Origin: a virus | DNA length: 64,000 nucleotides | Virus record (IMG/VR): IMGVR_UViG_3300046056_000003 | Span: 1-64,000 of that record | Reading direction: 5' to 3' (one strand) | Shown: positions 417 through 61,121 of the stretch, piece after piece | How positions within the stretch are numbered: the first letter of the stretch is position 1 | How the letters are laid out: every line of letters starts with the position of its first letter | The notes under the pieces: model-generated | Seen by the model: only the letters and a program-made list of their open reading frames with translations | Told to the model about the DNA's origin: nothing | Databases searched by the model: none | Translations under genes and position numbers: made by a program

Positions 417-445
417 CGGCATTTTCATCATTGACTCTATCGCCT

Positions 446-2887
446 ATGAAACTTCCCGACACTCAGCAAGAGGTCGAGACCCTGGGCGAGTCTGACCAGC
501 AAGACTTCACGATGGACGAGTCCTCCATGCATCTAGCCATGGATGCCTTCGTCCAGTACAAGGAGCCCATTGATTCCCTTGTTCGGGAGATTACCTCCAA
601 TGGGTTTGACGCCCACGCAGAAGCACAACGACTGAGAGACCTTCCGCTTGCCTCTCTTCTTGAGCACTCCGATTGGGACTCTCTTCCCTCCTACCAGACC
701 TGGACCTACTTCCAGGAGTGGCTCAGTCTCTTAGACCATCTCGAAGACTGGGAGGAGTCCGGCGTCATTGTCCGGATGTCAGAGAAGTATCCCTCCGGAG
801 GAGAACGCAAGATCGAAATTGAAGACAGAGGTGTGGGCATGGCCCCACGCCACTCCGACATTGAACCAAATGTTGGGATCTACACCACGTTCTTCGAATC
901 CACCAAGCGGGACACCAACGACAAGATTGGCACCTTCGGCATCGGTGCAAAAAGCCCTCTCGGCTACACCGACATGTTCGAAGTGATCTCCCGCTTCAAC
1001 GGCACCAAGTATCACTACGTGGTGTCGAAGGGAGAGAAGGTGCCCCGCATGGACCTCGTAGACCAGGAGCCGACCGACGAACCAAATGGTACAACGGTCA
1101 GGGTCAACATGAAGTCCGTGAGCGATTGGCGATCCTTTAAGGACGCCTGTAAGAAGCAGCTCGCCTACTTTCCGAATGTGCTCTTCGAAGGAGCGCTTTC
1201 CGGAAAGGTCTCCAACGACTTCAACATCTACGAGGGCCAAAACTTTGTTTTTCGGACGGACAATCCCTTCAACGAACTCCACATGTGCATCGGCGGGGTC
1301 TACTACCCGCTTGACTACGAGGCCGTAGACCTTGGGACCACCTACTCGAAGCGGCAGAAGTGGAATGTCCCCATCGCTCTGAAATTCGACATCGGTGAGC
1401 TTCCGATTCTCTGGAACCGGGAGAACGTGAAGTACACCGAAGAGGCGAAAGGAACCATCAAAGAGCGCATTTCCGACGTTCAGGACGAGCTACAGTCGAT
1501 CTTCGATGACTGCTACGGGGACAACGACACCGTTGGGGAGTGGCTGAATGCCTGGAATGCTTCTCAGGGAAGCACGGTGGATCTTACCGAGGACGTAAGT
1601 CTCAGCTTCACGGAGAAGTTTATTGCTTCCTCCGACGTTCCGGAGTTTGAAACCTACGAAAACATTCTCCCGAAGCTTCCCGGTGATCCTTTCTACCTCG
1701 CTAAGATCTACAAAAAGATCGACAAGGGCTACGTCTACCAAGGAGACTGGAGCAAGAAGCTGAAGGAATGCTACTTCAAAGGTCTCGACGGCGGGGTGTA
1801 CTACTGGGTAGAGAATCGCTATAGCCCCAAGACCAACCGCTACATCAATTGGGAGCATGGGCTTCGGAATTTCTATCTGATCAAGCCCAACATCGATGTC
1901 AATCTGGACCTATCTGATGATGAAGACAAGTCTAAGGCCGTTCGCCGCTTCAAAACCTATTACTCAGAGGATTTTGTAGCTCGGGAAGACATCTCCGACC
2001 TGCAACTGAAGACGATGCTTCATTTTGAGAGAAAAGTTCTCAAGCTGATCAGAAGCAAGTGTCGAGACTACAGCACGGAGGAGCCCACCGACGAGTTTAA
2101 GGAGATCGACAAGAATCGAGATCGGAAAAACGGCTCCTCAAACAGCCGCAGCATGAGCAAGAAGAAGCGGCAGGAAACCTTCCCGTGCAAGATGTACAGT
2201 TCCGGGGGTAGCTACTCCGGCTCTAAGTGGAGCCAGAAGCGAATGAAGTGGAAGAAAATCCACAATCCCGATCTGATTATCTACGGCCACCGGAAGCACG
2301 GCGATGACCTTCTCGACGTTGGCGACGTCTTTCATGACTTGAGCTACCTCAGTGACTACAGGTCCAACGGCTTCAAAACCGATCGGGTCTGGGTCATGAA
2401 AATCGCCAAGTCCAGGGTCGAACACTTCGAAGCCCTGGACACCAGCATTTTTATCGACAACGTGTGGGACCACTACTGGGGCTTCCTTCGCCGCAAGTAT
2501 ACGAAGGAGCAGGTCAACAACATCGTCAATCCATCTAGAATCCCCGATGGGCTATCGAAAATGTTTCCCCGAGTGAACGAGCTTTCGGAGACACTCAATT
2601 CCGAGCTAAACAACACGGGAGGACGACTGCCCACGTGGATTAAGGATGAGATTGACACTGACAAATACGTTGACCACCGATACCTACGGATGGCGAAAGA
2701 GCTGAAGGGATGGGTACTTAAATATCCTCTCTTCAAGGCTTTGAATCGGTATCGGGCAAAGAAAAATATGCCCAGTCACGCTACTTTCGATGAGGAGATT
2801 CAGTCCTACATCGAAAGCAAAAGTGAGTGCCATCCACTCCTTACTTATCGTTACCATCAACACAACCAGCAAACATCAAATGGATAG
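446..2887 (+). CDS. rIIA: rIIA-like protein with N-terminal GHKL (Hsp90/histidine-kinase-like) ATPase domain
   Basis: GHKL motifs appear in order: REITSNGFDAH (E..N..DA), IEIEDRGVGM (D.G.GM) and TFGIGAKS (G..G.G). The size is ~810 aa and it sits directly upstream of an rIIB-like gene. I prefer the ATG at 446 over the TTG at 431. Confidence 0.75.
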   Translation: MKLPDTQQEVETLGESDQQDFTMDESSMHLAMDAFVQYKEPIDSLVREITSNGFDAHAEAQRLRDLPLASLLEHSDWDSLPSYQTWTYFQEWLSLLDHLEDWEESGVIVRMSEKYPSGGERKIEIEDRGVGMAPRHSDIEPNVGIYTTFFESTKRDTNDKIGTFGIGAKSPLGYTDMFEVISRFNGTKYHYVVSKGEKVPRMDLVDQEPTDEPNGTTVRVNMKSVSDWRSFKDACKKQLAYFPNVLFEGALSGKVSNDFNIYEGQNFVFRTDNPFNELHMCIGGVYYPLDYEAVDLGTTYSKRQKWNVPIALKFDIGELPILWNRENVKYTEEAKGTIKERISDVQDELQSIFDDCYGDNDTVGEWLNAWNASQGSTVDLTEDVSLSFTEKFIASSDVPEFETYENILPKLPGDPFYLAKIYKKIDKGYVYQGDWSKKLKECYFKGLDGGVYYWVENRYSPKTNRYINWEHGLRNFYLIKPNIDVNLDLSDDEDKSKAVRRFKTYYSEDFVAREDISDLQLKTMLHFERKVLKLIRSKCRDYSTEEPTDEFKEIDKNRDRKNGSSNSRSMSKKKRQETFPCKMYSSGGSYSGSKWSQKRMKWKKIHNPDLIIYGHRKHGDDLLDVGDVFHDLSYLSDYRSNGFKTDRVWVMKIAKSRVEHFEALDTSIFIDNVWDHYWGFLRRKYTKEQVNNIVNPSRIPDGLSKMFPRVNELSETLNSELNNTGGRLPTWIKDEIDTDKYVDHRYLRMAKELKGWVLKYPLFKALNRYRAKKNMPSHATFDEEIQSYIESKSECHPLLTYRYHQHNQQTSNG

Positions 2888-4472
2888 ATCTAACGTCTTT
2901 GCAATGCGGACCTCTGGAGGGTCCGTAAAGGTCGTTTTCGAGGGACAACACTACCTCAAGACCGAGAACGCCGATGAGATTTATGCGGCGGCGCAGCAGC
3001 TTCGAAAAAAGGACACCGAAGAATACCGCGAGCGCCTTCGCAACCTTCTTGATCCCCACTACCGCGAGGTGGTCATGAGTGACCTTGAGCGGGACAACCT
3101 GGGCAACCTGTACCTGGAAGGGTTCAATCAGCCCCTGGGCGAAGGCATGGTCAGTCTGATCGAAGAGCACCACGAGCAGGACCTGCCTACCGCTCCCTTC
3201 AAGGAGTTCTGGAAGCGTCTCCAGCTCAATCCCAACCAGAAGGCGCGGGAGGACTTCTTTGAGTACGTGCGGGACTTCGGCCTCACCATTACGGATGAGG
3301 GCTACGTCATCCTGTACAAGGCCGTTGACCGCAATCCTCACGCGGATCTGGACAACGACCTCGTAGAGTTTGTCGGCCAGGAGTACCTCAAACACCAAGT
3401 CTCCCGGTCGAACCCCAATCCGGAAGATGTCTTCGTCGTAGAAGACGAGGACGGGGAGTACGCCATCGTTGAGGAGGAGGCTACGTCCACGGTTCCTCCC
3501 ATCGAAGACGACGTGGACTTCCTGAACGTCGGTGATCTTTCGGTGACCAACCTCCTCGAAGAGGCAAAAGCTCGGGGTATTGTCGATCAGATCAACGGTC
3601 TCGAATTTCGCTTCGAGGGCATTGACCACGTGCTCGGCCACCTCAAGGATGATGACCCGGACGCCTATCCTCTTCCCGACATTCGGGATGCCCTTCGTAA
3701 AGAGGTGATGTGCCCGAAGGATGTCGTTCTTGCAGATTTCGAGGACGACCCCCGCACCCTGCTTCCCGTCATGAAGCATGAGGGCGTGATTAACGACTAC
3801 GAGTTTCAAGGCATCAACAAGGTGTCCGTTACCAGGGACGGACGTTCTGTCCTCTTGGATAGCCTTGAGAACACAAAGATGGGTGACCGCATGGCCGAGG
3901 ATCTTGCGGCTGCTCGCCCAGACCTCGTGGATCCGACGCCGGATACCACGGAGCTGGAGTATCACGGCACCCTTGCCGAGATGTACACGCTCATCGTGGA
4001 GTCCTCCGATGCTCAGTTCCAGCCCTGGTATGAGGGGGGCGAGTACGGCAACGAGATTGACCTTGGGGAAATGATCTCCATGCCCCGTGAAGAGTGCGAT
4101 CCCAACAGCAACGTCGCTTGCTCTCAGGGCCTTCACGTCGGCAGCCACAAGTACGTCGAGTCCTTCGGCTCCAACATGGACGTGATCCTTGCCTGCGTAG
4201 TCAGTCCACGGGATATTGTGGCGCTACCAGACCGGGACCACAGCAAGGTGCGCTTCTGCCGCTACCTTCCCTACGCGACCATGGAGCGGAATGACGACGG
4301 CTCCTGGGAGGAGATCGAGGCCGTTCAAGTGTCTACCCATCGGTTGGAGGACGACTTCGACTACGGTGGGGCACTTGAGAACCTCGAAAACCAGGAGGAC
4401 CTGAGCGACGTGCAGCAGGATCGGAAGAAGATCCTCGAAGAGCGGGTCCAGCAGCTCCACACAGCGGAGTAA
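2880..4472 (+). CDS. rIIB: rIIB-like protein
   Basis: The C-terminal block ACSQGLHVGSHKYVESFGSNMDVILACVVSPRDIVALPDRDHSKVRFCRY parallels the T4 rIIB C-terminus as I recall it (CSRGLHV.S..Y...FG......V.V.PRDVV.IP.DY...K.R.C.Y). The ATG at 2880 overlaps the rIIA stop (ATGGATAG). Confidence 0.75.
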   Translation: MDRSNVFAMRTSGGSVKVVFEGQHYLKTENADEIYAAAQQLRKKDTEEYRERLRNLLDPHYREVVMSDLERDNLGNLYLEGFNQPLGEGMVSLIEEHHEQDLPTAPFKEFWKRLQLNPNQKAREDFFEYVRDFGLTITDEGYVILYKAVDRNPHADLDNDLVEFVGQEYLKHQVSRSNPNPEDVFVVEDEDGEYAIVEEEATSTVPPIEDDVDFLNVGDLSVTNLLEEAKARGIVDQINGLEFRFEGIDHVLGHLKDDDPDAYPLPDIRDALRKEVMCPKDVVLADFEDDPRTLLPVMKHEGVINDYEFQGINKVSVTRDGRSVLLDSLENTKMGDRMAEDLAAARPDLVDPTPDTTELEYHGTLAEMYTLIVESSDAQFQPWYEGGEYGNEIDLGEMISMPREECDPNSNVACSQGLHVGSHKYVESFGSNMDVILACVVSPRDIVALPDRDHSKVRFCRYLPYATMERNDDGSWEEIEAVQVSTHRLEDDFDYGGALENLENQEDLSDVQQDRKKILEERVQQLHTAE

Positions 4473-10206: not shown

Positions 10207-10224
10207 TCAATCAACACCATCAAT

Positions 10225-10620
10225 ATGAGTAAACAAAAAAGTGGCATTCAACAAACACGCTTTCACCCAGATGTTGATCTGAAAATTTACGATGACCCAA
10301 AGCACCAGGTATATAGAGACGTATGGCTCCACGCGAGGGCCAAGTTCAAAGACCATCGGGGAAAACTTATTACGGTCGACTTTACCAAGCCTGCATTGTC
10401 TAAAGTGTATCCAGAGGATTATCCGGACAGTGTAGGCTGGTGGGTTTACACAGAACTCCCAGATGAGGTAACTGCAAGAAAAAAGAACTACAAGAATTTA
10501 GGCAAAGCAATCACAAAGATTAACCGAATGGCCGATGGCAGGCATCCAAACGATGATGGAGGCCGTGCTCGTCGGTGGTGGGAGTGTATTTTCAACGAGA
10601 CAAATATCTTTGAAGGCTAA
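10225..10620 (+). CDS. hypothetical basic protein in a visibly lower-GC segment
   Basis: ATG start and Lys-rich sequence. A/T-ending codons (aaa, tta, att) are far more frequent than in the flanking genes. Confidence 0.55.
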   Translation: MSKQKSGIQQTRFHPDVDLKIYDDPKHQVYRDVWLHARAKFKDHRGKLITVDFTKPALSKVYPEDYPDSVGWWVYTELPDEVTARKKNYKNLGKAITKINRMADGRHPNDDGGRARRWWECIFNETNIFEG

Positions 10621-10676
10621 TCCAATCTACCCCAGACACTTCATGTCCGGGTGGGTCTCTGTCGGCCTTTATTCTA

Positions 10677-11177
10677 ATGAGTGATCGTCCCTGCGACGAT
10701 CATTCTCATTCCCTTACAACCATTGAACAAACCCCACACGCTGCTATGAGCCAAGTTGAAGAACAGCTTTCCGAACTCCTCGATCGGCGTACGTTCTTCG
10801 TTAGCACGAACGCGACCGGCCAAGGGAAGGTGTTGTATCGGCACCGCGAAGACGCAAGCAGGATTGCCCAGAAAAACGGACATAACGTAAGTGTTGATCG
10901 TCTCTACGACCTGAAAGAAGAGTTTGGGCCACATTGGGATTTTCCCCTATGGAAGATCGCTGTCCGCGAACGGGCGGAAGATCTTTTCCCTCAAGTCAAG
11001 GAAGAACGGCCAACGCGGCAGCATTCCCCCAACGACCCAATTGAATACAGGGTTGATCGAAAAGGCGGCCACACCGATTGGGTTACTGAAAAAGGCCTCT
11101 GGAATCTTGCCTGGAACCGCGCAATCCGCCAACTGCGGAGCGAAGGGTACGACGTCCCGGATGGGCTGCTGTGGTAG
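10677..11177 (+). CDS. hypothetical protein
   Basis: ATG start, 166 aa, plausible composition. The antisense ORFs here look like shadows. Confidence 0.55.
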   Translation: MSDRPCDDHSHSLTTIEQTPHAAMSQVEEQLSELLDRRTFFVSTNATGQGKVLYRHREDASRIAQKNGHNVSVDRLYDLKEEFGPHWDFPLWKIAVRERAEDLFPQVKEERPTRQHSPNDPIEYRVDRKGGHTDWVTEKGLWNLAWNRAIRQLRSEGYDVPDGLLW

Positions 11178-11229
11178 CTCTTTAGTTTCCTCTTTTTCCT
11201 CCACTCGCCCGCCCTGAACTCTCATCGAA

Positions 11230-11457
11230 ATGCTCAGACCCATGACCAAGCAAGACGTAGAAACTGCCCTCGATCACGCTGTGAACCTCAACTTCCTTCA
11301 GTCTTGGAAGCGCCACGCTGGTGGACAGGTCCAATATAGACCCGTGCGCGGATTTCAGGGTGCAGGTCAAGTCGTCGTACATTGGAAGGAGGCAGGTGAA
11401 TACCTTGCCCAAGAGGGGCTTTTCGACCCCGAGACAGGAGAGACATTAACTCCCTAG
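11230..11457 (+). CDS. hypothetical small protein
   Basis: ATG start, 75 aa, same strand and spacing as its neighbours. Confidence 0.45.
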   Translation: MLRPMTKQDVETALDHAVNLNFLQSWKRHAGGQVQYRPVRGFQGAGQVVVHWKEAGEYLAQEGLFDPETGETLTP

Positions 11458-11537
11458 ATCTATGATCGCCCCACCTTGGACGCAACCAGGATCAAAGTAA
11501 CTTTTTCCAATCTTATAAATATTTCTTCAGTTTTGCC

Positions 11538-11891
11538 ATGCCTACTGTTCTTCGTAAGTCTCACCATTCTGGAACTGGAACTCCCTACTGGATTCTCAAG
11601 GGTATGAGTAGCTCACGGACGCCCAAACCCCTTCGGGCAAAGCTCACGGTTGTAGACCTGTCTCACGAAATCCACAACGCGGAGGCAGACCGAAAATTTA
11701 TGTTGCAGGTGATGGACGATTCTTTTCATCCGTCAACTTCGTACAGCGCCGCAGGAAAAACGATTTACATTGGTCCTCACCACAAGGAGATGCTTTCAGC
11801 CCTAGAAAATACGTTCATGGGGGACCTTGAGTACGGAAATACAGCCGTGACTCGGGAGCACCTGATGAAAAAGCTGAGCGATAAACTCTAG
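11538..11891 (+). CDS. hypothetical protein
   Basis: ATG start, 117 aa. Confidence 0.5.
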   Translation: MPTVLRKSHHSGTGTPYWILKGMSSSRTPKPLRAKLTVVDLSHEIHNAEADRKFMLQVMDDSFHPSTSYSAAGKTIYIGPHHKEMLSALENTFMGDLEYGNTAVTREHLMKKLSDKL

Positions 11892-11908
11892 AACTTCAAA
11901 ATGTTACC

Positions 11909-12100
11909 ATGTCCGAAATTCAAAACAGCACTGAAATTCGAGCACAGCATCGTGATGACGACGGGGATCTAACTCGAACCTCAATTGATCCCGCGAAGAT
12001 TGACGAGATTCATAGTCGTAGAGAGGACATGTCTATGACGATTGTCTTCAAAGACGGGACCGAACTTGAGACTTTTCATCTGTCGTTTGCTACAATCTAA
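11909..12100 (+). CDS. hypothetical small acidic protein
   Basis: ATG start, 63 aa, tight spacing. Confidence 0.45.
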   Translation: MSEIQNSTEIRAQHRDDDGDLTRTSIDPAKIDEIHSRREDMSMTIVFKDGTELETFHLSFATI

Positions 12101-12113
12101 ATCATATTGATCT

Positions 12114-12353: not shown

Positions 12354-12374
12354 TTCAAACCCTTTATCAAAGTT

Positions 12375-12866
12375 ATGAGCGATTCTGACCGACCCGATAG
12401 CAATTTGGGTGTATCCCGATCACCCAGTAAAATCGAAAAAATGAGCCTTCCGGCTTTGGCACACACGCTTTCTGCGCGAGAACGCAAAACCCTCGTGCAG
12501 ATGATCTCGTATTCAGCCCATACACCGGAAATCGGAGAGGGTACCGCAGCTCACCTTAATGACCCTGAAAGCGAAACCAAAGATTTTGTCAGACAGACGG
12601 CAAAGTTTAGCTTTCTGGGCCTAGTGAAGATCATTAACACGAAGCACATGCCCCCTGGGAAGTACACGAAGGAAAAGCCGGACCCAGATACAGGAACGTA
12701 TAAGGGCAAAGGTGCGCAGGGACAGATATACGCAGTGAGCAAGAGGCTTACTCAAAGAGGGGTGGAGCTAGCTCGCTACCTCCGAGAGGGGGACGAAGAA
12801 AACGGCGTTGATCCCGTTCCGCTGAAGCCTGATCACGTATCTGACGTAATGCCCGAATACGAATAA
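12375..12866 (+). CDS. hypothetical protein, possible winged-helix DNA-binding fold
   Basis: LSARERKTLVQMISYS...GLVKIIN...GQIYAVSKRLTQRGVELARYL resembles a MarR-type wHTH layout. This is pattern-level evidence only. Confidence 0.5.
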   Translation: MSDSDRPDSNLGVSRSPSKIEKMSLPALAHTLSARERKTLVQMISYSAHTPEIGEGTAAHLNDPESETKDFVRQTAKFSFLGLVKIINTKHMPPGKYTKEKPDPDTGTYKGKGAQGQIYAVSKRLTQRGVELARYLREGDEENGVDPVPLKPDHVSDVMPEYE

Positions 12867-12889
12867 CGAACCTTTTAGCCAGACCAGAT

Positions 12890-13542: not shown

Positions 13543-13671
13543 ATGAACCTCGAAGAGCTGAAAGAACGGATTGAAGGGCTGGACGAATATACTCCAGACG
13601 GCCCCGAACAGGCTCGAAAGATGGAGATCCGACTTGAGCAGTGGAAGATCGTTCTTGAAGAAAGAACCTAG
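13543..13671 (+). CDS. possible 42-aa helical micro-protein (MNLEELKERIEGLDEYTPDGPEQARKMEIRLEQWKIVLEERT)
   Basis: ATG to TAG found by hand (below the ORF-track cutoff). Its coiled-coil-like composition looks more natural than the antisense 97-aa ORF covering the same DNA. Confidence 0.3.
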   Translation: MNLEELKERIEGLDEYTPDGPEQARKMEIRLEQWKIVLEERT

Positions 13672-13680
13672 ACTCTAGAT

Positions 13681-14613
13681 TCAAGAGTATTGATACATCG
13701 ACTTCATGTGCCTGTAGGCTTCCGCCTGAATTACCGTTCCAGACTGATTTGGATTTTGCCTCTTGGCCTTCTCTACGGCCTTCTCATGGAGGGAATCGAT
13801 GGTCTCTGAATCGAGGCTATCGATTTCCTCCTGTGAGAGGTCAGACATGAACATGCTAGTCACGTCTACGTCGGGGGCCTCTGTCCGGTCCTCGATTTTC
13901 GTCGTTTCTTGGGGCTGGTCTCTGTCAGAGTGAATGAAAAACTTGATCCGCTTGGCGGCCTGGCCTTCCCGCTCGACGTCGTAGGTGAACGAGATGTCGG
14001 TCTTTTTGCCGATCTCTTTCCGGGCTTTGCTGATGACGTGGTATTTGAGTTGGCTAAAAGCGGAGTAGGACTCTTCGATGCCCAGAATGTCTCTCAGCTC
14101 CTCGACACTTATTCGAAGAATAGAAATGCCCTCCCGCATTTTCAGCAGCTCGTAGATCCGCATCGAGTACGTAGACCGGAGAGGAAGGAAGTGTCCAGCC
14201 TCGTACATCGTAAATCTCCGCTTGAGTTGAAGGAGGTAGGGCTTCATCTCCTCGTTGAACTTCGCCTCGATGTAGCCATCTCCCTCTTTGTACTTACAAC
14301 GGTTCATCAGATTTATGCCGTCGTAGACCCGCTTCCCGTTTTCTTCGGTTTTGATTTCGAGCTTTTTGTCGAGAAGACTAGAGCAGATGTCTTCTGCCCG
14401 GTGGTAGAGGGATTCATCACTGAAGTCAGAACGGTCCATTAACTCTTGAAGATGGAGCTTTTGGTAGCCAAACTCCCGGTCGTCCTTGTCCAGTTGGGAA
14501 ATGAGCACTCCGATGATTCGATGCTCCATCCTGGACAGGGGCATCTTTGCTTGAACCAGCTTGTTGGCCTTGACGATCATGTGGCCCGTGGAGGAGTCTT
14601 CATTTCCCATCAT
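13681..14613 (-). CDS. rep: plasmid-type replication initiator, Rep_3/RepB-like
   Basis: The N-terminus MIVKANKLVQAKMPLSRMEHRIIGVLISQLDKDD matches the Rep_3 hallmark (v.k.N.Li.a.y.Lsl.E.rli...isql). The size is 310 aa and the iteron array lies immediately upstream. Confidence 0.75.
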   Translation of the reverse strand: MMGNEDSSTGHMIVKANKLVQAKMPLSRMEHRIIGVLISQLDKDDREFGYQKLHLQELMDRSDFSDESLYHRAEDICSSLLDKKLEIKTEENGKRVYDGINLMNRCKYKEGDGYIEAKFNEEMKPYLLQLKRRFTMYEAGHFLPLRSTYSMRIYELLKMREGISILRISVEELRDILGIEESYSAFSQLKYHVISKARKEIGKKTDISFTYDVEREGQAAKRIKFFIHSDRDQPQETTKIEDRTEAPDVDVTSMFMSDLSQEEIDSLDSETIDSLHEKAVEKAKRQNPNQSGTVIQAEAYRHMKSMYQYS

Positions 14614-14701
14614 GACTCTTGAATCGGGATATTAGAGATTCCATGTCAAACGGTCCCTGCGGGCGGAAAGATAGCCGTAGACGGCCAGAAATACCACTCC
14701 G

Positions 14702-14839
14702 ACATGGATTAGTTAACACCCCGACTGCTCCACATGGATTAGCTAACACCCCGACATGGATTAGCTAACAGTTTGACATGAATCAGCTAATACCCGACAT
14801 GGATGAGCTAACAGCCTACATGGATTCGCTAACACCCTT
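14702..14839. repeat. six direct iterons (consensus ACATGGATTAGCTAACACCCCG) forming an origin-like or centromere-like array
   Basis: Copies start at 14702, 14732, 14754, 14776, 14797 and 14818, and the last five have a 21-22 bp period. Each contains a palindromic core TTAGCTAA or a one-mismatch variant. An AT-rich tract (about 14882-14912) follows. The array sits between the rep start and the RHH gene stop. Confidence 0.85.
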
Positions 14840-14948
14840 GCTCTGAAATCCTCTTGCGCCCAACGACTTACCCGAACGCATAATAGGTTTAATGTTTTAA
14901 TGTGTAGTAATGGGGTAAAGCGGGCACACGCACGCGGAGGATGTAGCT

Positions 14949-15230
14949 TCAAGAATCTTCAACCTCGAACACACCGGGCACCTCGTACTCACCATTCTCT
15001 TCTTCCAGGCCCTCGACGAGGCTTCTCACGGCATGGTTAACCAAGTCCGCCATGGAGACGTCTTCCTCGTGGCTGATGGTTTTCAGTTTCTCTTTGAGGC
15101 CCGCGTTTAGGTTGGTCGCGTAGGAAATGCGATCTCGATCCTGGAAGCTGTCTAAACCTTCCTTGACGCTTCCTAGATCATATCCGGAGTCTTGATCGAA
15201 ATCGACGCTCATCTTGGACTGTTTGCTCAT
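14949..15230 (-). CDS. ribbon-helix-helix partition/centromere-binding protein (ParG-like)
   Basis: RISYATNLNAGLKEKLKTISHEEDVSMADLVNHAVRSLVEGL fits an RHH fold. It has an ATGA overlap with parA upstream, and its 93-aa size is typical of type Ib partners. Confidence 0.6.
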   Translation of the reverse strand: MSKQSKMSVDFDQDSGYDLGSVKEGLDSFQDRDRISYATNLNAGLKEKLKTISHEEDVSMADLVNHAVRSLVEGLEEENGEYEVPGVFEVEDS

Positions 15231-15943
15231 AGCCGCTGTTGGATTTCGTTTGCAAGAGACTCGTAGTCTTCGGTGGCCGTGGCATCGGGGGAATAGGAGG
15301 GAGGCGGGGTTCCTTCCGCTTCTGCTTCCTTTACCTGAACGGTATTTCGGATGAAGGTGTCGAAGGCCCGGTCCTCGAAGTTCTCTTTGAGGATTCCCGG
15401 CATTTCTCTATCGTTGACCGTACGGAGATCCACTTTACACGCGAAGGCTCCCTCAAAGCGGCTCTGAAAGTCGTTCACGAGGTATATCGTGTCCGTGAGA
15501 CCGTCAATGGCCCCTTGTCCCGTCTGGACTGGTGCTATTACGGCGTCTGAGGCAACGAGAGAGGCAATTACAAGGAAGCCCGTCGAGGGAGGGGGATCGA
15601 TAAGGCATACGTCGTAGCTCTTTCTAGCCACGCTTAGAAGCTTCTCAAGCCTCTGGACAATCTTTTTCACGGGCCTGGACTCCAACGTTGCCAGAGAACG
15701 ATCGGAGGGCACCACGTCAAATCCCCATTCTGTGCCTACCGCAGCATCGGGAGCACCCATATCACCGCTTAGAAAGGACATACATCGGCTCTGAGGCGAG
15801 GCTATCCACCTGGATAGACTGGCCTGGGGGTCCATGTCTACGGCGAGCACGTCGAACTCACGCGACCACAGGTCGGCGAGACTGACCACGGAGGTCGTCT
15901 TTCCGGTCCCGCCCTTCTGATTGAGGAGAGAGAGGGTATTCAT
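15227..15943 (-). CDS. parA: ParA-family partition ATPase (deviant Walker A)
   Basis: LLNQKGGTGKTTSVVSLA (KGG.GKT deviant Walker A), a later VLAVDMDPQ (Walker A'), and VCLIDPPPS (Walker B-like). 238 aa. Confidence 0.85.
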   Translation of the reverse strand: MNTLSLLNQKGGTGKTTSVVSLADLWSREFDVLAVDMDPQASLSRWIASPQSRCMSFLSGDMGAPDAAVGTEWGFDVVPSDRSLATLESRPVKKIVQRLEKLLSVARKSYDVCLIDPPPSTGFLVIASLVASDAVIAPVQTGQGAIDGLTDTIYLVNDFQSRFEGAFACKVDLRTVNDREMPGILKENFEDRAFDTFIRNTVQVKEAEAEGTPPPSYSPDATATEDYESLANEIQQRL

Positions 15944-15946
15944 CTT

Positions 15947-15981
15947 AGGTTCTAGCTGCTACCATATAGACGTTAGAACCA
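15947..15981. promoter_or_regulatory. inverted repeat AGGTTCTA-N19-TAGAACCA just upstream of parA (candidate operator)
   Basis: Arms at 15947-15954 and 15974-15981 are complementary at 7 of 8 positions, starting 4 nt upstream of the parA ATG. Confidence 0.3.
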
Positions 15982-16008: not shown

Positions 16009-16046
16009 AAAAAAGGCCCCCGCCAGAACCTTGGCTGACGGGGACC
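16009..16046 (-). terminator. intrinsic terminator oriented on the minus strand
   Basis: The minus strand reads GGTCCCCGTCAG-ccaaggtt-CTGGCGGGGGCC followed by TTTTTT. The stem is 9 bp with one mismatch, plus 2 outer pairs. Confidence 0.5.
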
Positions 16047-16195
16047 TATGGATTTTTCTCTCTCAATCTCCCAATGGGCTGAGTAATCGTTTATCACAGC
16101 CCGTCATCAAAACACCTCTCTCTTGCCCTCATTGTAGCAGGGGCTATTGGAGGGGTTCCACCTGTCATTAAATTATCCACAACCAGCGAAAACCG

Positions 16196-17427: not shown

Positions 17428-17548
17428 TCGTATTTATAGTATTCACAATGGACGGGCCATGATGGCTGTTTTTCAGCCAGACTTGAAAACGGACAGTTGA
17501 AGCGCCAATACAACGCTTTCGCCTCCCCAGAGCGAGATCTGGGGATCC

Positions 17549-17620
17549 TGTGGAGTAGTTCAGTGGCAGAACATCCGGCTGTTACCCGGAAAGTCAGTGG
17601 TTCGAATCCACTCTCCACAG
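17549..17620 (+). tRNA. tRNA-Asn (anticodon GTT)
   Basis: Folded by hand. Acceptor TGTGGAG/CTCCACA (7 bp); D arm GTTC-agtggca-GAAC; anticodon arm TCCGG-ctGTTac-CCGGA; variable loop aagtc; T arm AGTGG-ttcgaat-CCACT; discriminator G. CCA is not encoded. Confidence 0.9.
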
Positions 17621-17682
17621 CCTCTCAATCGCAGCGCAGTTGCGACAAGGCAACCCTCCATCGTGAGTGAGGTCTGAACACT

Positions 17683-18214
17683 GGGGGTGACACGGTTTCG
17701 ACAGAAGCCAACTGATCTCCTTCCACGACCAGAGCACGCCTTACAGACTCTCTTAAATCTCAGTGTGAGGAACCATAGTTGGCACCGTTGTCAACTTCGA
17801 GGATGAGACGGCCTCCATCGCCGATGAGGCCATGGACCGTCTTGCGGAGACCGAAGAGGTCTTCGCGGAAGAGAAGGATGCCCTGGCCGCTTTGGGGTAA
17901 TCCGATAGGTTGGGCCTTGCCCAACCTGCCTCCATTCCAGTCTTGACACCGATAGACAATCGGCCTTACTCGCTCCTAAGTAGATGGCTTTCATCTTGAT
18001 GGAAGACATCGTGATGGGAGAAGGTGTACGGTCGAGTGCTGGAGTGACATTTATCGGTCGATCCCCGAGTTCTTCACGTACAGGGAAAGCAACGTGACTT
18101 GGAGCACCCTGCTCAAGGTCCGGTCCAAGTAAAAAACCACATTGCGCATGGTCGTGACCCATGGACAGAGTGACGGGCTTTTGGACGCGAGTTCGACTCT
18201 CGCCACCTCCACCA
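17683..18214 (+). ncRNA. ssrA: tmRNA (ssrA-like), about 532 nt, with a 39-codon tag frame at 17781-17900
   Basis: The 5' end GGGGGTGACACGGTTTCGAC pairs with 3' CACCTCC, including a G3-U pair. The T arm is GCGAG-ttcgact-CTCGC and ACCA is encoded. AATCTCAGT...ATAGTT precedes the resume codon GGC at 17781. The frame ends ...GCC CTG GCC GCT TTG GGG TAA, followed by the helix GGTTGGGC/GCCCAACC. Confidence 0.85.
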
Positions 18215-18259
18215 CTATCCGCCAAAACCCACCTGTAACACGAAGTAACGGCAGTACCT

Positions 18260-18844: not shown

Positions 18845-19333
18845 ATGAACAACTCAGACCTAGGACTCGACATCGAGCAGGCCTCCACCGAAGAAGCCAT
18901 GGAGGTCGAGAAGACCACCAACATGAGTTCGAAGTACGCGCCCGTGGCCGAGCAGTGGAAGGAGGCTCGCGGGAACGACGAAAGCCTCATCATCCGTGAC
19001 GTGGAGAAGAGCACGGTGGAAAGCCTCCGCAACTTCTTCTACCGGACCTTCGAGAAGGAGAACGTCATTGTTCGGTCCACGAAGCAGGAGGACGAGAGCT
19101 ACACCGTGACCATTCGGAAGCGCGTGAACGGGGAGTACCTCCAGAACACCGATGAGGAGGGCGAAGGCGAAGAGACCGTCGACGAGGAACCGATGAACGA
19201 GGAGGAGAGTCCCTCGACGCCCGAAGAGACGGAAAAGGCCATCGATGACGAGTTCTTCGACGACAAGAACTACGAGGAGGAAAGCGCCGAGAGGGAGGAT
19301 CCGGTGTCCATGTCCGGTGGCCCGATGGGCTAG
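18845..19333 (+). CDS. hypothetical highly acidic protein
   Basis: ATG preceded by GCACAACCAGTA. 162 aa with a Glu/Asp-rich C-terminal half. Confidence 0.6.
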   Translation: MNNSDLGLDIEQASTEEAMEVEKTTNMSSKYAPVAEQWKEARGNDESLIIRDVEKSTVESLRNFFYRTFEKENVIVRSTKQEDESYTVTIRKRVNGEYLQNTDEEGEGEETVDEEPMNEEESPSTPEETEKAIDDEFFDDKNYEEESAEREDPVSMSGGPMG

Positions 19334-22958: not shown

Positions 22959-25900
22959 TTAACACTTGGTAATGATATGCTTACGGAGTGTTCGAAAGGT
23001 CTCTCGTTCTTGCTCAGTGAGGGTGCTTAGGAACTCTCCAACGCTTTGCCCCAGCGATTCTTTGTCTCCCTCGATGTAGCGGCGGGTGGACTCATAATTT
23101 CCATTCTGCATGTCTTCCACCGCATCTGCCAACGGATTGTCACTCGTCTCTCCCCCACGCTCTTCGGCGGCCTCCTCTCTTGCGTCGTTGTTGCGCTCTT
23201 TCTTCACCTCGTTTGCCTCTTCATTCCGAGTAGTTTCACCATCTTTCCGCTGGACTTCGACTCTTCCAGTGGAGTGGGTGATGATTTCGTAGGTCCGGTC
23301 TTTGTCGTGTGAGTAGTACTCTTCGGAGCTTAGGCTTTCGTCGGTAGACTTTCCCTGATTGGTCTCTGTACTGCCTTCTGTCTCGAAGAGGCTGGTCTGC
23401 TGCTCGATCGTCATCGTAGAGACGGTTAGCCCTCGTTCCAGAAGACTCCCCCTTTGCACGTCGATGTCTAAAGCTTGTGTAAAGGATCGGACAAACTTTT
23501 TGACGCGGTCGACAATCTTCTCGTAGAGACTTCGGCCCCCATCTATTTGTTGCTCGTTGGCCCACTGTTGGAACTCCGGGTTCGTGAAGAAGGCCACCAG
23601 CGTCTCGTGTGCATTCTCTCCCGCCTTGAAGAGATTGCGCTTCCGATCATTGAACTGGTCAAGCTGCACATCCTCTCCGCTGCGAAGCTCTTCCTGTGTC
23701 CGCAGATACTCGTCGAAGTTCTCAAATTGGTCTCGAAGGAGACTGCGGACGTCGCTGTTAAGCTGCAAGAGAGCGCGTTCTTCCGCCGTTCGGTTGGAGG
23801 GGTCCTTCTCTATGGCCGTGGTGATGGCATCAGCAGTGAGGGCGTGTAGAGCTTCATGAAGCTCCACGGAGGCGGCAAAGTCGGCCTCTGCATCGGCGTT
23901 CCCAATGTCCAGGTTGCTGTTGAGGACGATAGTGTTTGTATCCGGATTGTACTTCCCGTTGACCTCCCCCAAGTCCTTCACCTCGAAGCTTACGCCTAAG
24001 TCTCCCTCCTGCTGGATCCGATTCATGAGCTGGGCCACAAGGCGAAGGCTGCTTCGAACCTCCTTGTCCGAAGAGATCGAGTCCATCACCTCGGATAGTG
24101 ATGCCTCGCTGGAAGCGGGGAGGTGGTGCCTGTAGATGCCGTGGCTTTCGACGGTGGGGCTGGTGATCTTCGTGCCCCCTTCCGGAATGTTGAGGCCATT
24201 GCCGAAGTATTCTGAGGACGCCGTGATCTTCACCGCCGATGACATTTCCGGGACCCCAATGCCTTCCGGGGGAGTGTCTCGGCGCTCAAAAGGATTGTAC
24301 TCCACCATATCCGTGGGCCCACCCGTGGCCGATCCAAGGGTGCTAATCTCCCCGTATCCGGTTCCTTGCCGAGTAAACAGCCGAAATCGGCCTACGTCAC
24401 TGTCGAAAAACGAGATGTACTCGACAAGCTGTGGCCCTCTGGACGTGTACCGCGTTAGCTCCTCGGGCACCTCGTCGTTGATAAACTCAATTTTCGGTCC
24501 CTGAACAGACCCTTTTACTTTATTCTCCACGATCTCATCGGTAAGCCGGGGAGCCTGTGAGGGGTTGTTCTGGAGATACTGTTGCAGGAAAGACGCCCCT
24601 CCGGTGAAGGCATCGAGATTCATATTCTCAATGGCCTTCGTCACCCCTTCTTCGTTGAAGAACTGGGGAGGGATGAGGCTGTCGAAGGTTCTTGGGCTTC
24701 TCTTTTTGCCCTGGATGTACATGGTGTAGAGGACGAGGTCTTTGGCCATCTTCTGTTTCTCCTCGACCGGGGAGGAAAGAAGGCCAGCCAAGTCTTCAAC
24801 GATTCGCATTTCTTCGGTCTCATCCAGCTTGATCGAGTTGTAGTAGAGTTCGTCGGGGGTGTGTGCATAGGTTTTCTGTAGCGCAGTCTCTCCTTCTTCG
24901 TATCCGTATTCCTTGGTCTGATCTTTCAGGTTGATTTCGATGAAGCGAAGGAACGGATGATCGTTGGCCCACCCGTCTTTCCGGGCATTGGAAAGCCTTC
25001 GAGCAAGAGAGGGGCTGTCTTCGGTGGTGTACAGCAAGCGTTTACGCAGATCTGAAAGACTCTCGTCCGTCAGTGCATCTTTTGCGCCGGCGTAGACCAT
25101 CGACTGGAACTCCTTCCACACCTTAAACACCTGCTCCTCGCTCATTCGGTCATCCCTCATCGTCTCCATCTGAGTGATGGCCTCCTGAAATGGAGTGGAA
25201 TCATACTGGAACAGGTTGCCGAAGAGCTTATCAGCAAGCAGGTACGAGTTCTTGGCGTAGTCTCCATGCTCCGTCGTAGGCTTGAAGGAGTGGGCGTTGT
25301 TGGGCACCTGCAACTCTCCCCCGATACTCATGGGGCTGGAGAGGGAAAGATCAAACGCATCTTTTAGGGCCTTCATGTGACGCCGAGACTCCAACAGGTT
25401 CTTTCCAGGGCCCTTCCGGTTCCCGAAGTTGAATGCAGACTGGAGGGTATCAAGCGTCTTGTTCACTTCCAAAAGCCTGCGGAACGCTTCCAGGTAGTTG
25501 TCTTGCCGCCTGTTCCAGGCGTCGTCCCCGGTAGGGTTTTGAAGGTCTTCTAGAAGCTGCTCTGGACCAGAGATCATAGGGCGGCCTTGGCCTCTCCGCG
25601 CTTGCACTTCTTCGATCACGTCGGAGAGAACGCCGAAGGAGGACCCGCTTTTCAGCGCAGACTTGCGCCGATCCACCTCTCCCAAGATGTTTTCGATGAT
25701 CGGCTGCCGCATGAGCCTCGTCACATGCTCCAGGTCAGGCCCAGTGCCCTGCTTGTCCGACATCATAAGCAGGGGGAAGATGGCGTTGGCCGTCTCTTGG
25801 TTGGCTCCCAGAGGCCCCAGGATTAGCTCCTTGGCGTTGTCTACCGCTGCGTTCTGATACAGCGTGATGGCATCATGTGCGGACAAGTCCTCTGCTGAAT

Positions 25901-28900
25901 GCCCAGACCGGATGCTGGTTGTCTTCCCTAACTCGGAAAGTTCTCTGGTTCCCCCATCTCGGCCCTTTACCATGATCGACATGGCGTTTTCTTCATCCTG
26001 CCGGGGAAGGGTCTGGGGATGCTGTTGGAGAATCTCGTTGGTCTGTGCGGCAAGCGAGGAAATCCCGACGAGCCCCTTTCCGTCGAGCTGCCGCCTGTAA
26101 TCCCCTTGCTGCCTGTCCGGAAGAATGAAGTCCTCCCTGTTGAACCCCTCCACGAGAATGTCCTTTTCGGCCCCCAGGTCGTTTCTGTCCAAGGGTTGGA
26201 GGACATTCTTTGCGTGCTCCGGGCTTTGGGCAATGTCCATCATCAGATCGAGATACTGGTCGTCCAGTGCCTTCCGGGTGTCGTAGTCAAACTCCCGTAC
26301 AGACTGCCCAAAGTCGGTCTCTGTACCTTCAGGAATCTCTTTGTCCTTGTCGATCCTGGTTAGATTCCCGTCTTCGTCCAGAGTATACTGCCGGAGCATC
26401 GTGTTCAGCTTGTCCACGTCGAAGTCCGATCCCATCTGGCTTACAATCTCGTCGGGGACGAAGGCCAGGTTGTAGAAGGACGGATCCATGAAGCCGACGA
26501 TCTCGACAGGAAGGCCGCTGTTCGGGCCCTGGTAGGGAATCCGGAATCCGAGAGATTCTAAAAGCGAAGGATCGAGCTTCTCTTCATCGATGACTCTCCG
26601 TCCATCTTCGGTGGTCTTGGTGAACTTCTCCATGGAGATGGTATTGCCGTCGCTGTCGGAGAAGTACCAGGGCACGATGATCTGTGCAGGCTCTGTGGCC
26701 GTTGGATTTCCGTCCTCGTCGGTCTGGACTTTCATGTGGTCCAGTCCGGTGGAGGGGTCGAAATCCTCTTTCATTATCAAGTCGCTCTCCGACATGTCTT
26801 CGAACTTTAGTCCCGCACTGGAGGCCTGGACGAAAGAGCGCCCATGGGCTTTTCTCCGGACAAGCCTATCGGTCACAATCGACATCAGGAGGCTTTCGAT
26901 CTTGGTCCCGCTTCCGGTGAAGGAGAGGGGTTTCTCGAAGTCCGATGCCGTGGTGTCCTTGATCTCTTGAATTTCCAGCTCCGACCAGTTTCTTGCCTGA
27001 GCTTCCCGAAGGACCATCTCTTTGATCTTCTCCCCGTCCGGAAGTACGTCTCTGGACTCCCCTTCGAGATCCGCCCCAAGTTCGTCGGCCAACCTGGACG
27101 CCTCCATTTCCATGATTGCCTTGTTCAGCTTTCGCTTTTGACTCAGCGCTTCCGACTTATCGATCTCACTCCCGTCTTCCCGAACAATGGTAGGATCGGC
27201 CCCCGCAATGGCCAGCTTGTTCATCTGCGTAGAGACGCTGATCTGATCCTGTTTTCGCGGGATCACGAACTGCACCCCAAATCCTGTGCGGTTTAGAGAC
27301 ACCGAAGACTTATCGAGATCCTCCGCAAGTGAGGTTTCCTCTTCGCCGACTTCATTGGGGTCCGGTTCCCGAACGCTGTCATTTTCATCAAAGACGTCCA
27401 CCGGATTCTTCTGCCCGACCTTCACGGCACTTCCGTAGGCTGCGCGGTCCACGCCTCCCCTCTCCATCGCCTTTCGGAGCTTGTCCAGCTCGCTTCCGGA
27501 AGTGAGGTTCGGCACCAGGGGGAAGCTGGAGGACTTCACCATCTGCTGGACATACTGCCCGGCGTCCTCGTCCCAGCGGTGTCCGCTGTAGAACGGCTTC
27601 ATGGGGGCGAGATCCAGCGTCTTCATCTCTTCGGGCGTGAGCCGCCAATCGTAGTTTCCACGGTCCCGTTCTTTCTGGATTCGATCCAGGATCTCCTGCG
27701 CCTCTTCTGGATCTATGCGACCATACTGAATGCCCACCCGAACATGCTCGTCCAAGGTGGTGTACTCCTGGGCATCGGTAGACTCAACGCCCTCAAACCC
27801 TTTAGCCTGCTGTCCGTCGAAGATCTTGGCGTACTCCTCCCGCTCTTTGCTGTCGATGAGCCGATCAGAGAGGGTGACGAAGCTGTGGCTGGCTTCCTCC
27901 CCGAAGCCGTGGCTAATCGTCGGCCCCATGGCCTTCGCCAATCGCTTCTGAAAGTTGCCCAGGGTGGCCTCGATAGTGTCACTACGAGTGTCACCACTTT
28001 TCACAAACTGCGCAGGGTCCCCGTGAAAGAGGCGCATCATCTCCGTAAACCCAAGGACGTGGGAGAGCTGATAGTCCAGGGCGGCATATACCTTGGCGTG
28101 GTTGCCTGAATACTTGTTCGGCGTCTGCTTCCGCAGGTAGTGCTGGTTCATGAGGTCCCACACCTCATTTTGGGACCACTCACGGGCCTTGTCCAGGGTC
28201 TTTCTCTCGATCCAGTTCTTGAGGGCATCGAAAACCGCGTTTCTGGATGCATCATTCTGGTTGGGAGACTTTAGCTTGTAGCTCCCGTCTGCCTGCTTTG
28301 TCCAGATGGCCTTTCTTTGCGCTTCTGAAAGCTGCTCTGGGTTCAGGGGAAAGAGGTAGAACGTCGATGCATTTCTCGCGTAGTCTTCCCCCATCGGATG
28401 GTCTTCAAACGCTCGCTGCTTGGCTTGCTGGTAGGACAGTCCCTCTTCTTGAAAGTAGTTGATCTGCTTTTGCAGATCCCTCTGTACTTTCGTCACCCGA
28501 TTTATCTCAGATAGAGCTGCCCGATAGAGCGCCGACAGCTCCTTATCCCCGATCTCCAGGTCAACGGCCCCGAGCTTGCCTTCTTGTAGGGTTTCTGCCT
28601 CAATCTCCGCGCCCCACATACCCCCCTTGTTTCCAGCCTGTTGGTAGTTGCCCAGATTTGGGACCTGGAGGGCAAAACTCCGCGAGCGGTCACTAAGCGT
28701 GAGACTGTTGATCAGCCGCTCGTCCCTTCCGTTGTTCTGGAAGATGGAGAGGGCCAGGATTTCCTGATCCTTCGGAGAAAGGTTATCCCTCGTGGCCGCC
28801 GCGTTTCTCTTTGATACCGTGAGGCCGTCGAGATAGAAGACGTCGAGGGATTCTCTCGTGGACGTCTGGTCTCCACGCTTCCCGGCCAGTGCTTGTAGCA

Positions 28901-54209: not shown

Positions 54210-54443
54210 CTAGTTATCTGCTAATTCGAGAGGATTGTTTTTGGAAAGCTCCCAACTAGACTTGATGAACGAGGTCACGTCTTCAGCGTCGAGGAGGGTC
54301 CACTTGTCTTTGGTATAGATCTCCCCCTCTTCGTTCTTGACGAACAGCTTGATGATGTAGTCCGAGTCTGTGTTTTCGACCGGACAACACTCCAAGACCT
54401 TTTTCTCGTCATCTGCGATAAGGCAAAAACAGTCCGAAGCCAT
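54210..54443 (-). CDS. hypothetical small protein, 77 aa (start trimmed to ATG 54443)
   Basis: The internal Met (MASDCF...) gives a TAATG overlap with the upstream stop, matching the coupling pattern of the operon. Confidence 0.5.
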   Translation of the reverse strand: MASDCFCLIADDEKKVLECCPVENTDSDYIIKLFVKNEEGEIYTKDKWTLLDAEDVTSFIKSSWELSKNNPLELADN

Positions 54444-55234: not shown

Positions 55235-55365
55235 TAAGAGACGTGGATGTGCGTGAACAGCCAGATGATAATTTCAACGAGCTTCCAAATCCCGAGTGGG
55301 GCAAGAATGAAAAAGGCCACAAAGAAATACTGGAGGCCCTCCATGAATCCTCTGGTCGGCATCAT
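55234..55365 (-). CDS. 43-aa hydrophobic micro-protein (MMPTRGFMEGLQYFFVAFFILAPLGIWKLVEIIIWLFTHIHVS)
   Basis: Found by hand. The ATG lies 4 nt after the upstream stop and the TAA overlaps the next ATG (TAATG). It has one clear transmembrane span. Confidence 0.45.
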   Translation of the reverse strand: MMPTRGFMEGLQYFFVAFFILAPLGIWKLVEIIIWLFTHIHVS

Positions 55366-55369
55366 AGCG

Positions 55370-55864: not shown

Positions 55865-55879
55865 GGGCTCTCCGTCTGT

Positions 55880-57140: not shown

Positions 57141-57296
57141 AAGTACTGCAAGGTGGGTGGTGGTGAAAGACCTGTGACGAAGCGCTTTTAATGTAACGGC
57201 CCCGTTTTTTGGTTTAAAGCCTGTAGTGTGAAGAAAGATTGCCTTTGGTCATCCGTTAGTCACACCGACAGGGGATTCCCCAATCCAAAAGAGACG

Positions 57297-58604: not shown

Positions 58605-58629
58605 TGCTGGTTAGCTGTTGGTTAAAGGG
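58605..58629 (-). promoter_or_regulatory. conserved leader motif copy (minus strand CCCTTTAACCAACAGCTAACCAGCA-ATG)
   Basis: It spans the stop codon of the upstream gene (TAA within CCCTTTAA) and runs up to the ATG at 58604. Confidence 0.45.
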
Positions 58630-59783: not shown

Positions 59784-59785
59784 GG

Positions 59786-60130: not shown

Positions 60131-60140
60131 ACCCCCCGCC

Positions 60141-61119: not shown

Positions 61120-61121
61120 AG

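Follow-up and report, generated by a model that had tools for sequence, protein, structure and literature searches.

The first 64 kb of a 96,427-bp viral contig (IMG/VR record IMGVR_UViG_3300046056_000003, positions 1 to 64,000), here called the window, belong to the genome of a crAss-like phage. Within the early region lies a minus-strand cassette made of an initiator gene (rep), an array of direct repeats, an AT-rich tract, and a partition (par) operon in which parA is coupled to a small partner gene. An earlier note, made from the letters of this DNA, had proposed the layout of an iteron/Rep_3 replicon joined to a small-ParA operon, and the gene, repeat and structure matches described here agree with it. 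The cassette is very probably a bona fide plasmid-type replicon with a par operon under selection. That these genes confer episomal persistence, so that the virus is a phage-plasmid, is the reading that we favour as probable. The combination of an iteron initiator with ParA is well known among phage-plasmids (P1, D6, SSU5), and the lineage of the window joins them as a new case. It is the first crAss-like example that we could find with a complete iteron-Rep_3 and par backbone; its host-plasmid ancestry is demonstrable and its host group is culturable.

The replication initiator and its origin

The Rep protein was predicted to be a Rep_3-type initiator. The profile searches that the earlier note suggested were run, and both Rep and ParA score over the Pfam thresholds. 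Rep matches Rep3_N at 3.6e-35 (121.8 bits, gathering cutoff 22.4) and Rep3_C at 6.8e-14 (52.3 bits, gathering cutoff 21.1), as well as phrog_4402 of PHROG at 6.5e-40. Its sequence matches in the PDB are R6K pi, F RepE and pPS10 RepA (2nra, 1rep, 1hkq), all of them solved initiators. The two winged-helix domains (WH1 and WH2) by which Rep_3 or iteron-type initiators are recognized are both present. The rep open reading frame (ORF) is bracketed near-exactly by a 17-nt inverted repeat, GATTCAAGAGTATTGAT / ATCATGACTCTTGAATC, at 13678-13694 and 14609-14625 (88% complementary). Its motif CATGACTCTTGAATC recurs just upstream of parA on the plasmid-like contig L073, and the repeat may mark the edge of a module or be bound by a protein.

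An AT-rich tract had been placed between the par genes and the repeats, and it was found there (coordinates of all features are in Table 1). The tract occupies the same position with near-identical sequence (CATTAAAACATTAAACCTATTAT) in the plasmid-like replicons L066, L070 and L002, and is a candidate for the DNA-unwinding element of the origin. The six direct repeats are spaced 30/22/22/21/21 on the plus strand, which is 21-21-22-22-30 in the sense of rep. With up to three mismatches, their 17-nt core ACATGGATTAGCTAACA occurs six times in the window, always within the array, against 0.03 expected; none of 100 shuffles reached six copies. The array of six 21-22 bp repeats claimed from the sequence is therefore real, but the palindromic core ascribed to it, TTAGCTAA, is exact in just two copies and is specific to the allele of the window phage. 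The half that is conserved across the family is TGTTAG(C). The other (3') half differs among the compared replicons and does so together with the Rep allele. A further, inverted copy of the iteron is present in all eight replicons examined, at -22 to -52 from rep. This is where such autorepression sites classically lie, and the copy is a candidate operator for autorepression by Rep.

This origin plan (AT-rich tract near -296, six iterons, one inverted copy) is common to all examined replicons of the same Rep family, and is shared with plasmid-type replicons of Salinibacter ruber, S. altiplanensis and Salinivenus. The iterons accompany Rep even in plasmids whose parA operon is 5-6 kb distant. 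A second comparison comes from a sister phage (IMG/VR contig L001), which shares its gene order with the window along 19 kb (85-90% nucleotide identity) and has the cassette in the equivalent place. When the two phages are compared, identity is about 90% for parA and its partner and 75% for Rep, and the repeats cannot be aligned. Because the repeats travel and co-vary with Rep, also where parA is kilobases away, they are Rep iterons and not a centromere. The earlier suggestion that they serve Rep, the partner protein or both thus holds for Rep and fails for the centromere.

The partition operon

ParA matches AAA_31 (2.7e-28) and CbiA (7.6e-15), both over the gathering score, and phrog_164, 'ParA-like partition protein', at 3.9e-44. 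The match to NCBIfam ParA_partition (7.3e-23) is below the cutoff of that family. Together with the KGGTGKTT motif these matches bear out the deviant Walker A ATPase that had been predicted. The nearest solved structures are Soj, ParA and ParF. The protein is small and without an N-terminal helix-turn-helix (HTH) extension, the profile match beginning at residue 1-4, as is characteristic of type Ib systems.

The small partner ORF coupled to parA through ATGA is present as had been described. Its assignment to the ribbon-helix-helix (RHH) class stands less firmly, the fold being indicated by weak Arc, RHH_3, ParG and PrgO profile matches only. The partner matches PHROG Arc-like repressors at 3.1e-5 and 4.8e-4; among its homologues there are weak matches to the Pfam families RHH_3 (7.7e-4), ParG (0.05) and Antitox_RHH (0.15), and the partner itself matches NCBIfam PrgO (0.066). 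A conserved block, R-x-R-I-S-[YF]-x-T-N-L-N-A-G, is followed by two predicted helices. On plasmid-like contigs coupled homologues of 95-99 aa come directly after ParA. From these features the partner is a probable RHH centromere-binding protein.

The intergenic stretch of 285 nt on the 5' side of parA is 96% identical in the two phages, above the coding flanks. It contains a strong terminator-like hairpin, conserved in the sister phage, and an inverted repeat that is a weak candidate for an operator or centromere element; the motif of this repeat is not enriched across the whole window. A structured RNA is not claimed for the stretch, which has no Rfam family match and a whole-stretch fold z-score of -1.6. 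A scan for sigma-70 promoters found none, as may be expected for a host of Bacteroidota type.

Clusters of short repeats of the TCATGA type flank the parA-partner operons of the plasmid homologues (L073, 1-1231 and 2269-2400; L075, 9740-10000 and 11035-11160; L072, 9740-10000). They lie upstream of the operon, and in L073 and L075 downstream as well. These clusters are likely the centromeres of the partner family. An obvious equivalent was not seen at the phage par operon.

Table 1. Features of the window, with positions counted from its first nucleotide
Feature	Position	Strand	Description
Exchangeable rep-ori module	13695-14925	-	AT-rich tract, iterons and rep
rep	13681-14613	-	310 aa, Rep_3-family initiator, WH1 and WH2
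Inverted iteron copy (seventh)	14630-14647	+	4 mismatches in 18; about 34 nt upstream of rep ATG; part of inverted repeat I1
Six direct iterons	14699-14837	-	TGTTAGCTAATCCATGTC (rep-sense strand); at -221, -200, -179, -157, -135, -105 from rep ATG
AT-rich tract	~14879-14912		80% A+T in the richest 30 nt; about -296 from rep ATG
ParA partner ORF	14949-15230	-	93 aa; ATGA overlap with parA stop (translational coupling)
parA	15227-15943	-	238 aa; deviant Walker A KGGTGKTT at residues 10-17
Inverted repeat	15948-15980		GGTTCTAAC-N15-GCTAGAACC; just 5' of parA start
Terminator-like hairpin	16014-16047	-	Strong; 13 pairs and T run; upstream of parA promoter region
tmRNA, full-length	17683-18214	+	Rfam RF00023, 73.7 bits (gathering score 47), E ~1e-28
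Virion protein with crAss-type RNA polymerase signature	22959-30563	-	2534 aa; DFDVD at residue 1380
crAss tail ring proteins	54443-55234, 55880-56644, 61122-61877	-	Span 54443-61877

Plasmid ancestry and the likely host

Among 5.8 billion sequences the closest Reps are annotated as Salinibacter altiplanensis, S. ruber or metagenomic. One of them, P0001, is a 100% match, and P0002, at 84% identity, stands in a plasmid context. The neighbours of the Reps at 81-84% identity are plasmid genes, such as their own ParA-RHH pairs, restriction genes and, on one contig, CRISPR-Cas. The readable contigs of homologues at 60-84% identity are likewise plasmid-like, with RND efflux pumps, UmuC/DinB, toxin-antitoxins, restriction systems, CRISPR-Cas and ParA-RHH pairs. 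In PLSDB the nine best matches are all S. ruber plasmid records (36-62% identity), and Rep is about 62% identical to the Rep of closed S. ruber plasmids. Genomes of GTDB with this Rep family belong to Salinivenus, Salinibacter, Rhodothermales and Rubrivirga. After sequences of the sister-phage type, the best matches of ParA are at 56-63% identity on Salinibacter plasmid-like contigs. A plasmid-like ParA-partner pair adjoins a Rep_3 gene in L072 and probably also in L073. A metagenome scan for relatives returned plasmid-like or short contigs only.

The replication and partition genes accordingly trace to plasmids of the Salinibacteraceae. This plasmid homology makes a member of the same family the likely host. 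In hypersaline brines crAss-like contigs are already known (PMC7290462). The word 'Crass' in a saltern paper (PMC5228507) refers to a CRISPR assembly tool and has no bearing on crAss-like phages.

A distant Rep_3 protein (25% identity), encoded about 1 kb upstream of a ParA (26-27%), was seen on unrelated viral contigs of 31-115 kb (L133-L138, L148 and L156, from IMG/VR sample 3300045988). These contigs, which have none of the crAss-like genes of the window, probably represent other phage-plasmids.

Selection, contiguity and exchange of the rep-ori module

IMG/VR was scanned with Rep, with alignments of Rep and of ParA, and with three phage genes flanking the cassette; just one related phage contig emerged, the sister phage. 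Against it, parA has a dN/dS of 0.12, the partner one of 0.07 and rep one of 0.17, with 0.09-0.18 for the flanking phage genes. These values indicate purifying selection on all three genes of the cassette. An assembly from a different read set, the 49,528-bp Logan contig SRR18079250_221, is 100% identical to the window over 13741-63268 and spans the junction between cassette and phage, so that a chimera is excluded. The contig ends at 13741, 60 nt before the rep stop and close to the module breakpoint at 13663-13695. This end may reflect co-existing alleles in the sample, or may be a coincidence.

Within the cassette the AT-rich tract, the iterons and rep form a unit with a history of its own. 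From end to end this rep-ori module aligns with the plasmid-like contigs L070/L071, at 81.6% nucleotide identity over 1238 nt, iterons included. The sister phage aligns to it over the rep ORF only (76.8%), and homology between the phages restarts at 14880, within the conserved AT-rich tract. The dS of rep between the two phages is 1.03, against about 0.4 in neighbouring genes. In a distance tree the Rep of the window clusters with Reps in plasmid context (L070, L066, S. altiplanensis), and that of the sister phage falls in another clade, so that the two phage Reps are not sisters. The rep-iteron allele of the sister phage is a different one, nearer to other plasmid-type Reps. The excess of dS in rep, the alignment with L070/L071 and the tree together lead to the conclusion that, after the split between the two phages, recombination put a plasmid-type allele in the place of the earlier rep-ori.

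The specificity half of the iteron in the window phage (CTAATCCATGT) was found in no sampled plasmid, the closest having CG(A/T)(A/T)TGGATGT. A unique specificity half fits escape from incompatibility better than the targeting of plasmids.

The surrounding phage genome

The genome was claimed to be of crAss type, and three kinds of evidence agree. ORFs of the window match the Pfam families CrAss_Ring_1 (1.5e-33), CrAss_Ring_2 (2.1e-22) and CrAss_Ring_3_4 (2.2e-10), which were assigned to individual genes through the identical Logan contig. Over residues 926-1432, the 2534-aa ORF is homologous to virion proteins of Flavobacterium FpV, of Bacteroides phages of the crAss001 type and of Cellulophaga phages, and it also matches phrog_16227 at 3.6e-45. 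The DFDVD motif falls inside this homologous segment; 10.1101/2020.03.07.982082 describes DFDxD as the mark of the virion RNA polymerase of all crAss-like phages. Genes for the major capsid protein (MCP), portal and large terminase were not identified in the window, and probably lie in the remaining 32 kb. The genome is thus considered crAss-like in the broad sense, from the ring proteins, the virion-protein homology and DFDVD.

The plus-strand early region encodes rIIA, rIIB and ribonucleotide reductase. Family scans of the window ORFs, including 41 further ORFs, detected no integrase, recombinase or transposase family; the lack of a visible integrase had been noted before. Other genes which the earlier note had invoked did not survive the same scans. 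Neither the proposed RHH regulator at 9461 nor the S24-like ORF at 16987 has a Pfam or PHROG match, and no outer-membrane family was found for the supposed moron-like gene in the Pfam scan of window ORFs. The 41 further ORFs contained no S24 peptidase, HTH or RHH regulator, or outer-membrane family. As a result, these genes provide no evidence for a lysogeny switch. The cassette has no match among defence-system profiles, and its base composition is not distinguishable from that of phage or plasmids.

Hypervariable accessory DNA flanks the cassette. About seven small ORFs without family matches occupy 10222-12113 and 12364-12889, segments that are absent from the sister phage, and the sister phage has a 600-bp insertion where the window has 17440-17445. 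An acidic 162-aa phage ORF at 18845-19333 (+) has homologues (37-44% identity) on plasmid-like contigs of Rhodothermales, where they lie downstream of rep at a distance of 0.5-1.3 kb (L015, 12327-12614; L051, 2974-3282; L037, 1348-1539). This ORF may be one more gene that reached the early region from a plasmid.

Proposed episomal persistence and its alternatives

In the reading that we favour, a working plasmid backbone of Salinibacteraceae origin has become fixed in a lineage of crAss-like phages. Rep monomers bound to the six phased iterons would open the AT-rich tract and bring in the host replisome to start theta replication, while Rep dimers at the inverted iteron would repress the rep promoter, and iteron-bound Rep would cap copy number through handcuffing. 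The ParA ATPase and its small coupled DNA-binding partner would segregate the copies. The phage genome of about 96 kb could then be kept in Salinibacter-type hosts as a low-copy episome (a phage-plasmid or a stable carrier state), which would replace integration. The rep-ori unit would be swapped by recombination with co-resident plasmids, giving new iteron specificity and hence new incompatibility. Gene content, plasmid ancestry and purifying selection make a plasmid-prophage lifestyle a reasonable inference. What the sequences show is the identity of the genes, the anatomy of the origin, its plasmid ancestry, the shared site in the sister phage, purifying selection and module exchange. We infer beyond this that the origin fires in vivo, that copy number is controlled and the copies partitioned, that the genome circularises with its lytic genes silenced, and that the phage exists as an episome.

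Several observations favour this reading. Virion and lysis genes stand on one replicon with plasmid replication and partition genes, the combination that defines a phage-plasmid, and contiguity follows from the second assembly and the sister phage. The few detectable phage-borne homologues of Rep include, among the closest, those of D6, KS14 and phiSemix9P1, which we take to be plasmid prophages. Many of the phage matches of ParA are in mycobacteriophages, some of which carry parABS instead of an integrase and form extrachromosomal prophages.

Other observations weigh against it. No repressor, antirepressor or other lysogeny-switch gene was detected among the window ORFs scanned, and rIIA, rIIB and the overall gene content resemble a virulent phage. 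The 420 nt upstream of rep contain no DnaA box (TTATCCACA, up to one mismatch), in the phage or in any homologous replicon. Many origins of Rep_3 or iteron type have such a box, not all. Around the par operon a centromere search by k-mers and motifs returned one inverted repeat and zero enrichment. A profile search of the PDB with the partner gave no match, and its AF2 models, from single-sequence and 12-sequence inputs, are of low confidence (pLDDT 54-56). No CRISPR spacer links the phage to a host, with one marginal 23-nt match among the Salinibacteraceae loci compared. At a threshold of 90% identity, neither this ParA nor this Rep has a match in any NCBI Salinibacter assembly of the protein collection, so the sequenced isolates give no sign of carriage. 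Finally, 32 kb of the 96.4-kb genome, with its ends and its own replication genes, are outside the view.

The rIIA- and rIIB-like genes, at 431-4472 (+), head the early region. The study of the S. ruber virus EM1 proposes lysis inhibition as a trait of episomal carriage (PMC12064560), and these genes may bear on the question of lifestyle.

It could be argued that Rep and the iterons drive early theta replication during productive infection, much as lambda O acts at its origin repeats, and that no plasmid state exists. ParA and its partner would then position replicating DNA or regulate early transcription. The cassette does lie in the early region, next to nucleotide-metabolism and rII genes; no second initiator is visible in the window, the ORFs scanned show no lysogeny switch, and some apparently virulent phages, such as a Lactococcus skunavirus, encode proteins of Rep_3/RepB type. 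However, the replicon is 82% identical in DNA to those of resident host plasmids and shares their layout, including the candidate autorepression operator and the phased iterons. These would serve to limit copy number, whereas a burst calls for the reverse. It is hard to see what a ParA-partner operon, dedicated and kept by purifying selection, would do in a lytic burst, and crAss-like phages in GenBank are without a detectable homologue of this Rep. On balance we consider a purely lytic origin unlikely.

The same iterons and Rep might instead serve as an incompatibility weapon that interferes with, or displaces, defence-carrying Salinibacter plasmids, with the switching of alleles tracking the targets. 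Related plasmid-like contigs do carry CRISPR-Cas, restriction-modification and McrA-like nucleases. The rep-ori alleles of the sister phages differ and have their closest relatives in separate Rep clades, of which only the clade of the window has members confirmed to stand in a plasmid context. No sampled plasmid, however, has iterons identical to those of the phage, the specificity half being different, and a full par operon and an autoregulated rep would be superfluous for interference. This makes the weapon very doubtful. Less credible still is that the cassette is passive cargo, that is, recently captured plasmid DNA without function, or an assembly chimera of plasmid and phage. The module does clearly come from plasmids, and the part of the genome around it is variable. 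Against this, the same junctions recur in the independent assembly (at 100%) and in the sister phage at 10-15% DNA divergence, all three genes are intact with dN/dS of 0.07-0.17, and the intergenic stretch upstream of parA is 96% conserved. We regard cargo or artefact as largely refuted already.

Comparison with known systems

The closest relatives of the cassette are the plasmid replicons of Salinibacter and Salinivenus (NZ_CP030372.1, NC_007678.1; contigs L002-L008 and L066-L070). They share Reps of 57-84% identity, the origin layout, and a ParA with a small coupled partner from the same lineages. Unlike theirs, the backbone described here is part of a crAss-like phage genome (about 96 kb), and its iteron specificity half is unique among the replicons sampled. 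In the phage the parA-partner pair lies directly upstream of the origin, whereas in most of the plasmids it is kilobases away or downstream of rep.

Phage-plasmids of the P1, P7, D6 and SSU5 types are likewise tailed phages with an iteron initiator of the RepA/RepE fold class, a ParA operon and no integrase (for P1, see PMC10983915). The Rep of D6 is a detectable homologue of the window Rep, at 25% identity. P1 differs in its type Ia ParA-ParB-parS system (large ParA, HTH ParB), a second iteron locus (incA), the lytic replicon RepL and C1 immunity. The window phage, in contrast, has a small ParA with a 93-aa partner, its 64 kb contain a single cluster of iterons, and a search for an immunity gene came up empty. 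Small Walker-type ParAs without an N-terminal DNA-binding domain are typical of type Ib systems (TP228 ParF-ParG-parH, pB171 ParA-ParB, pSM19035 delta-omega, pCF10 PrgP-PrgO). A coupled small partner is shared as well; that of the phage has a disordered N-terminal tail and then a predicted strand-helix-helix, and gives weak matches to ParG, PrgO and RHH_3. Unlike in them, no centromere-like repeat array was found at the phage operon, and sequence similarity to the named systems is marginal.

Carjivirus communis, the prototypic crAssphage, is also of crAss type, lacks an integrase, carries plasmid-type replication genes and has been proposed to persist as a plasmid (PMC10983915; PMC7969092; PMC11652158). 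That proposal rests on two RepL genes and culture data (PMC10983915; PMC7969092; PMC11652158), and just 19 further Crassvirales with repL were found in the same work. C. communis differs in having two RepL (PF01719) genes and a toxin-antitoxin system, and in infecting gut Bacteroidales. The preprint describing it (PMC10983915) does not mention iterons and reports no Rep_3 initiator, iteron array or ParA operon. The window phage has instead a complete iteron-Rep_3 replicon with a par operon, a traceable ancestry in host plasmids, and a hypersaline Salinibacteraceae setting. From the same host group comes virus EM1 of Salinibacter ruber M1, also a non-integrating virus kept in growing cells (PMC12064560). 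The carriage of EM1 (35 kb) is described as episomal pseudolysogeny with asymmetric loss and without a marker of partition or synchronous replication (PMC12064560). The window phage carries precisely the markers that EM1 is without.

A tmRNA gene near the cassette

A tmRNA gene adjoins a tRNA-Asn gene (17549-17622, +) not far from the cassette. The match covers the full RF00023 model, with an insertion of about 190 nt, and the gene is conserved in the sister phage (76.4 bits). Nowhere else are the two phages conserved as well as in the block 17445-17983 (95%). The acceptor stem is canonical, with G3-U70. A candidate tag frame of 39 codons, unusually long and acidic, ends in ALAALG (GTVVNFEDETASIADEAMDRLAETEEVFAEEKDALAALG*). 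ARAGORN did not report a tmRNA at this position. Given the tmRNA, the minus-strand ORF at 17791-18225 is probably not a gene.

Implications for crAss-like phages

It has long been asked how phages of crAss type, lacking integrases, remain so abundant, and to our knowledge the sole concrete proposal is RepL-based plasmid maintenance in the gut crAssphage. The lineage of the window has a far more explicit maintenance module than RepL, with a plasmid ancestry that can be traced base by base. A phage-plasmid lifestyle is no longer a new idea for crAss phages, given the RepL-based proposal for C. communis (PMC10983915; PMC7969092). We advance a wider view tentatively, with slightly less than even confidence: that crAss-like phages outside the gut include true phage-plasmids that possess the full backbone of host plasmids and repeatedly swap the rep-iteron unit to change incompatibility group. 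The exchange of rep-ori alleles between sister phages and plasmids is a clean natural case of the exchange of an incompatibility determinant. Because the host group is culturable, and episomal carriage has been shown in it for an unrelated virus without such genes, the hypothesis of a crAss phage-plasmid is directly testable. If true, culturable Salinibacter would offer a genetically tractable model for crAss-type persistence without integration, and a crAss-like phage would be seen to exchange genes, directly and to this day, with host plasmids that carry defence systems.

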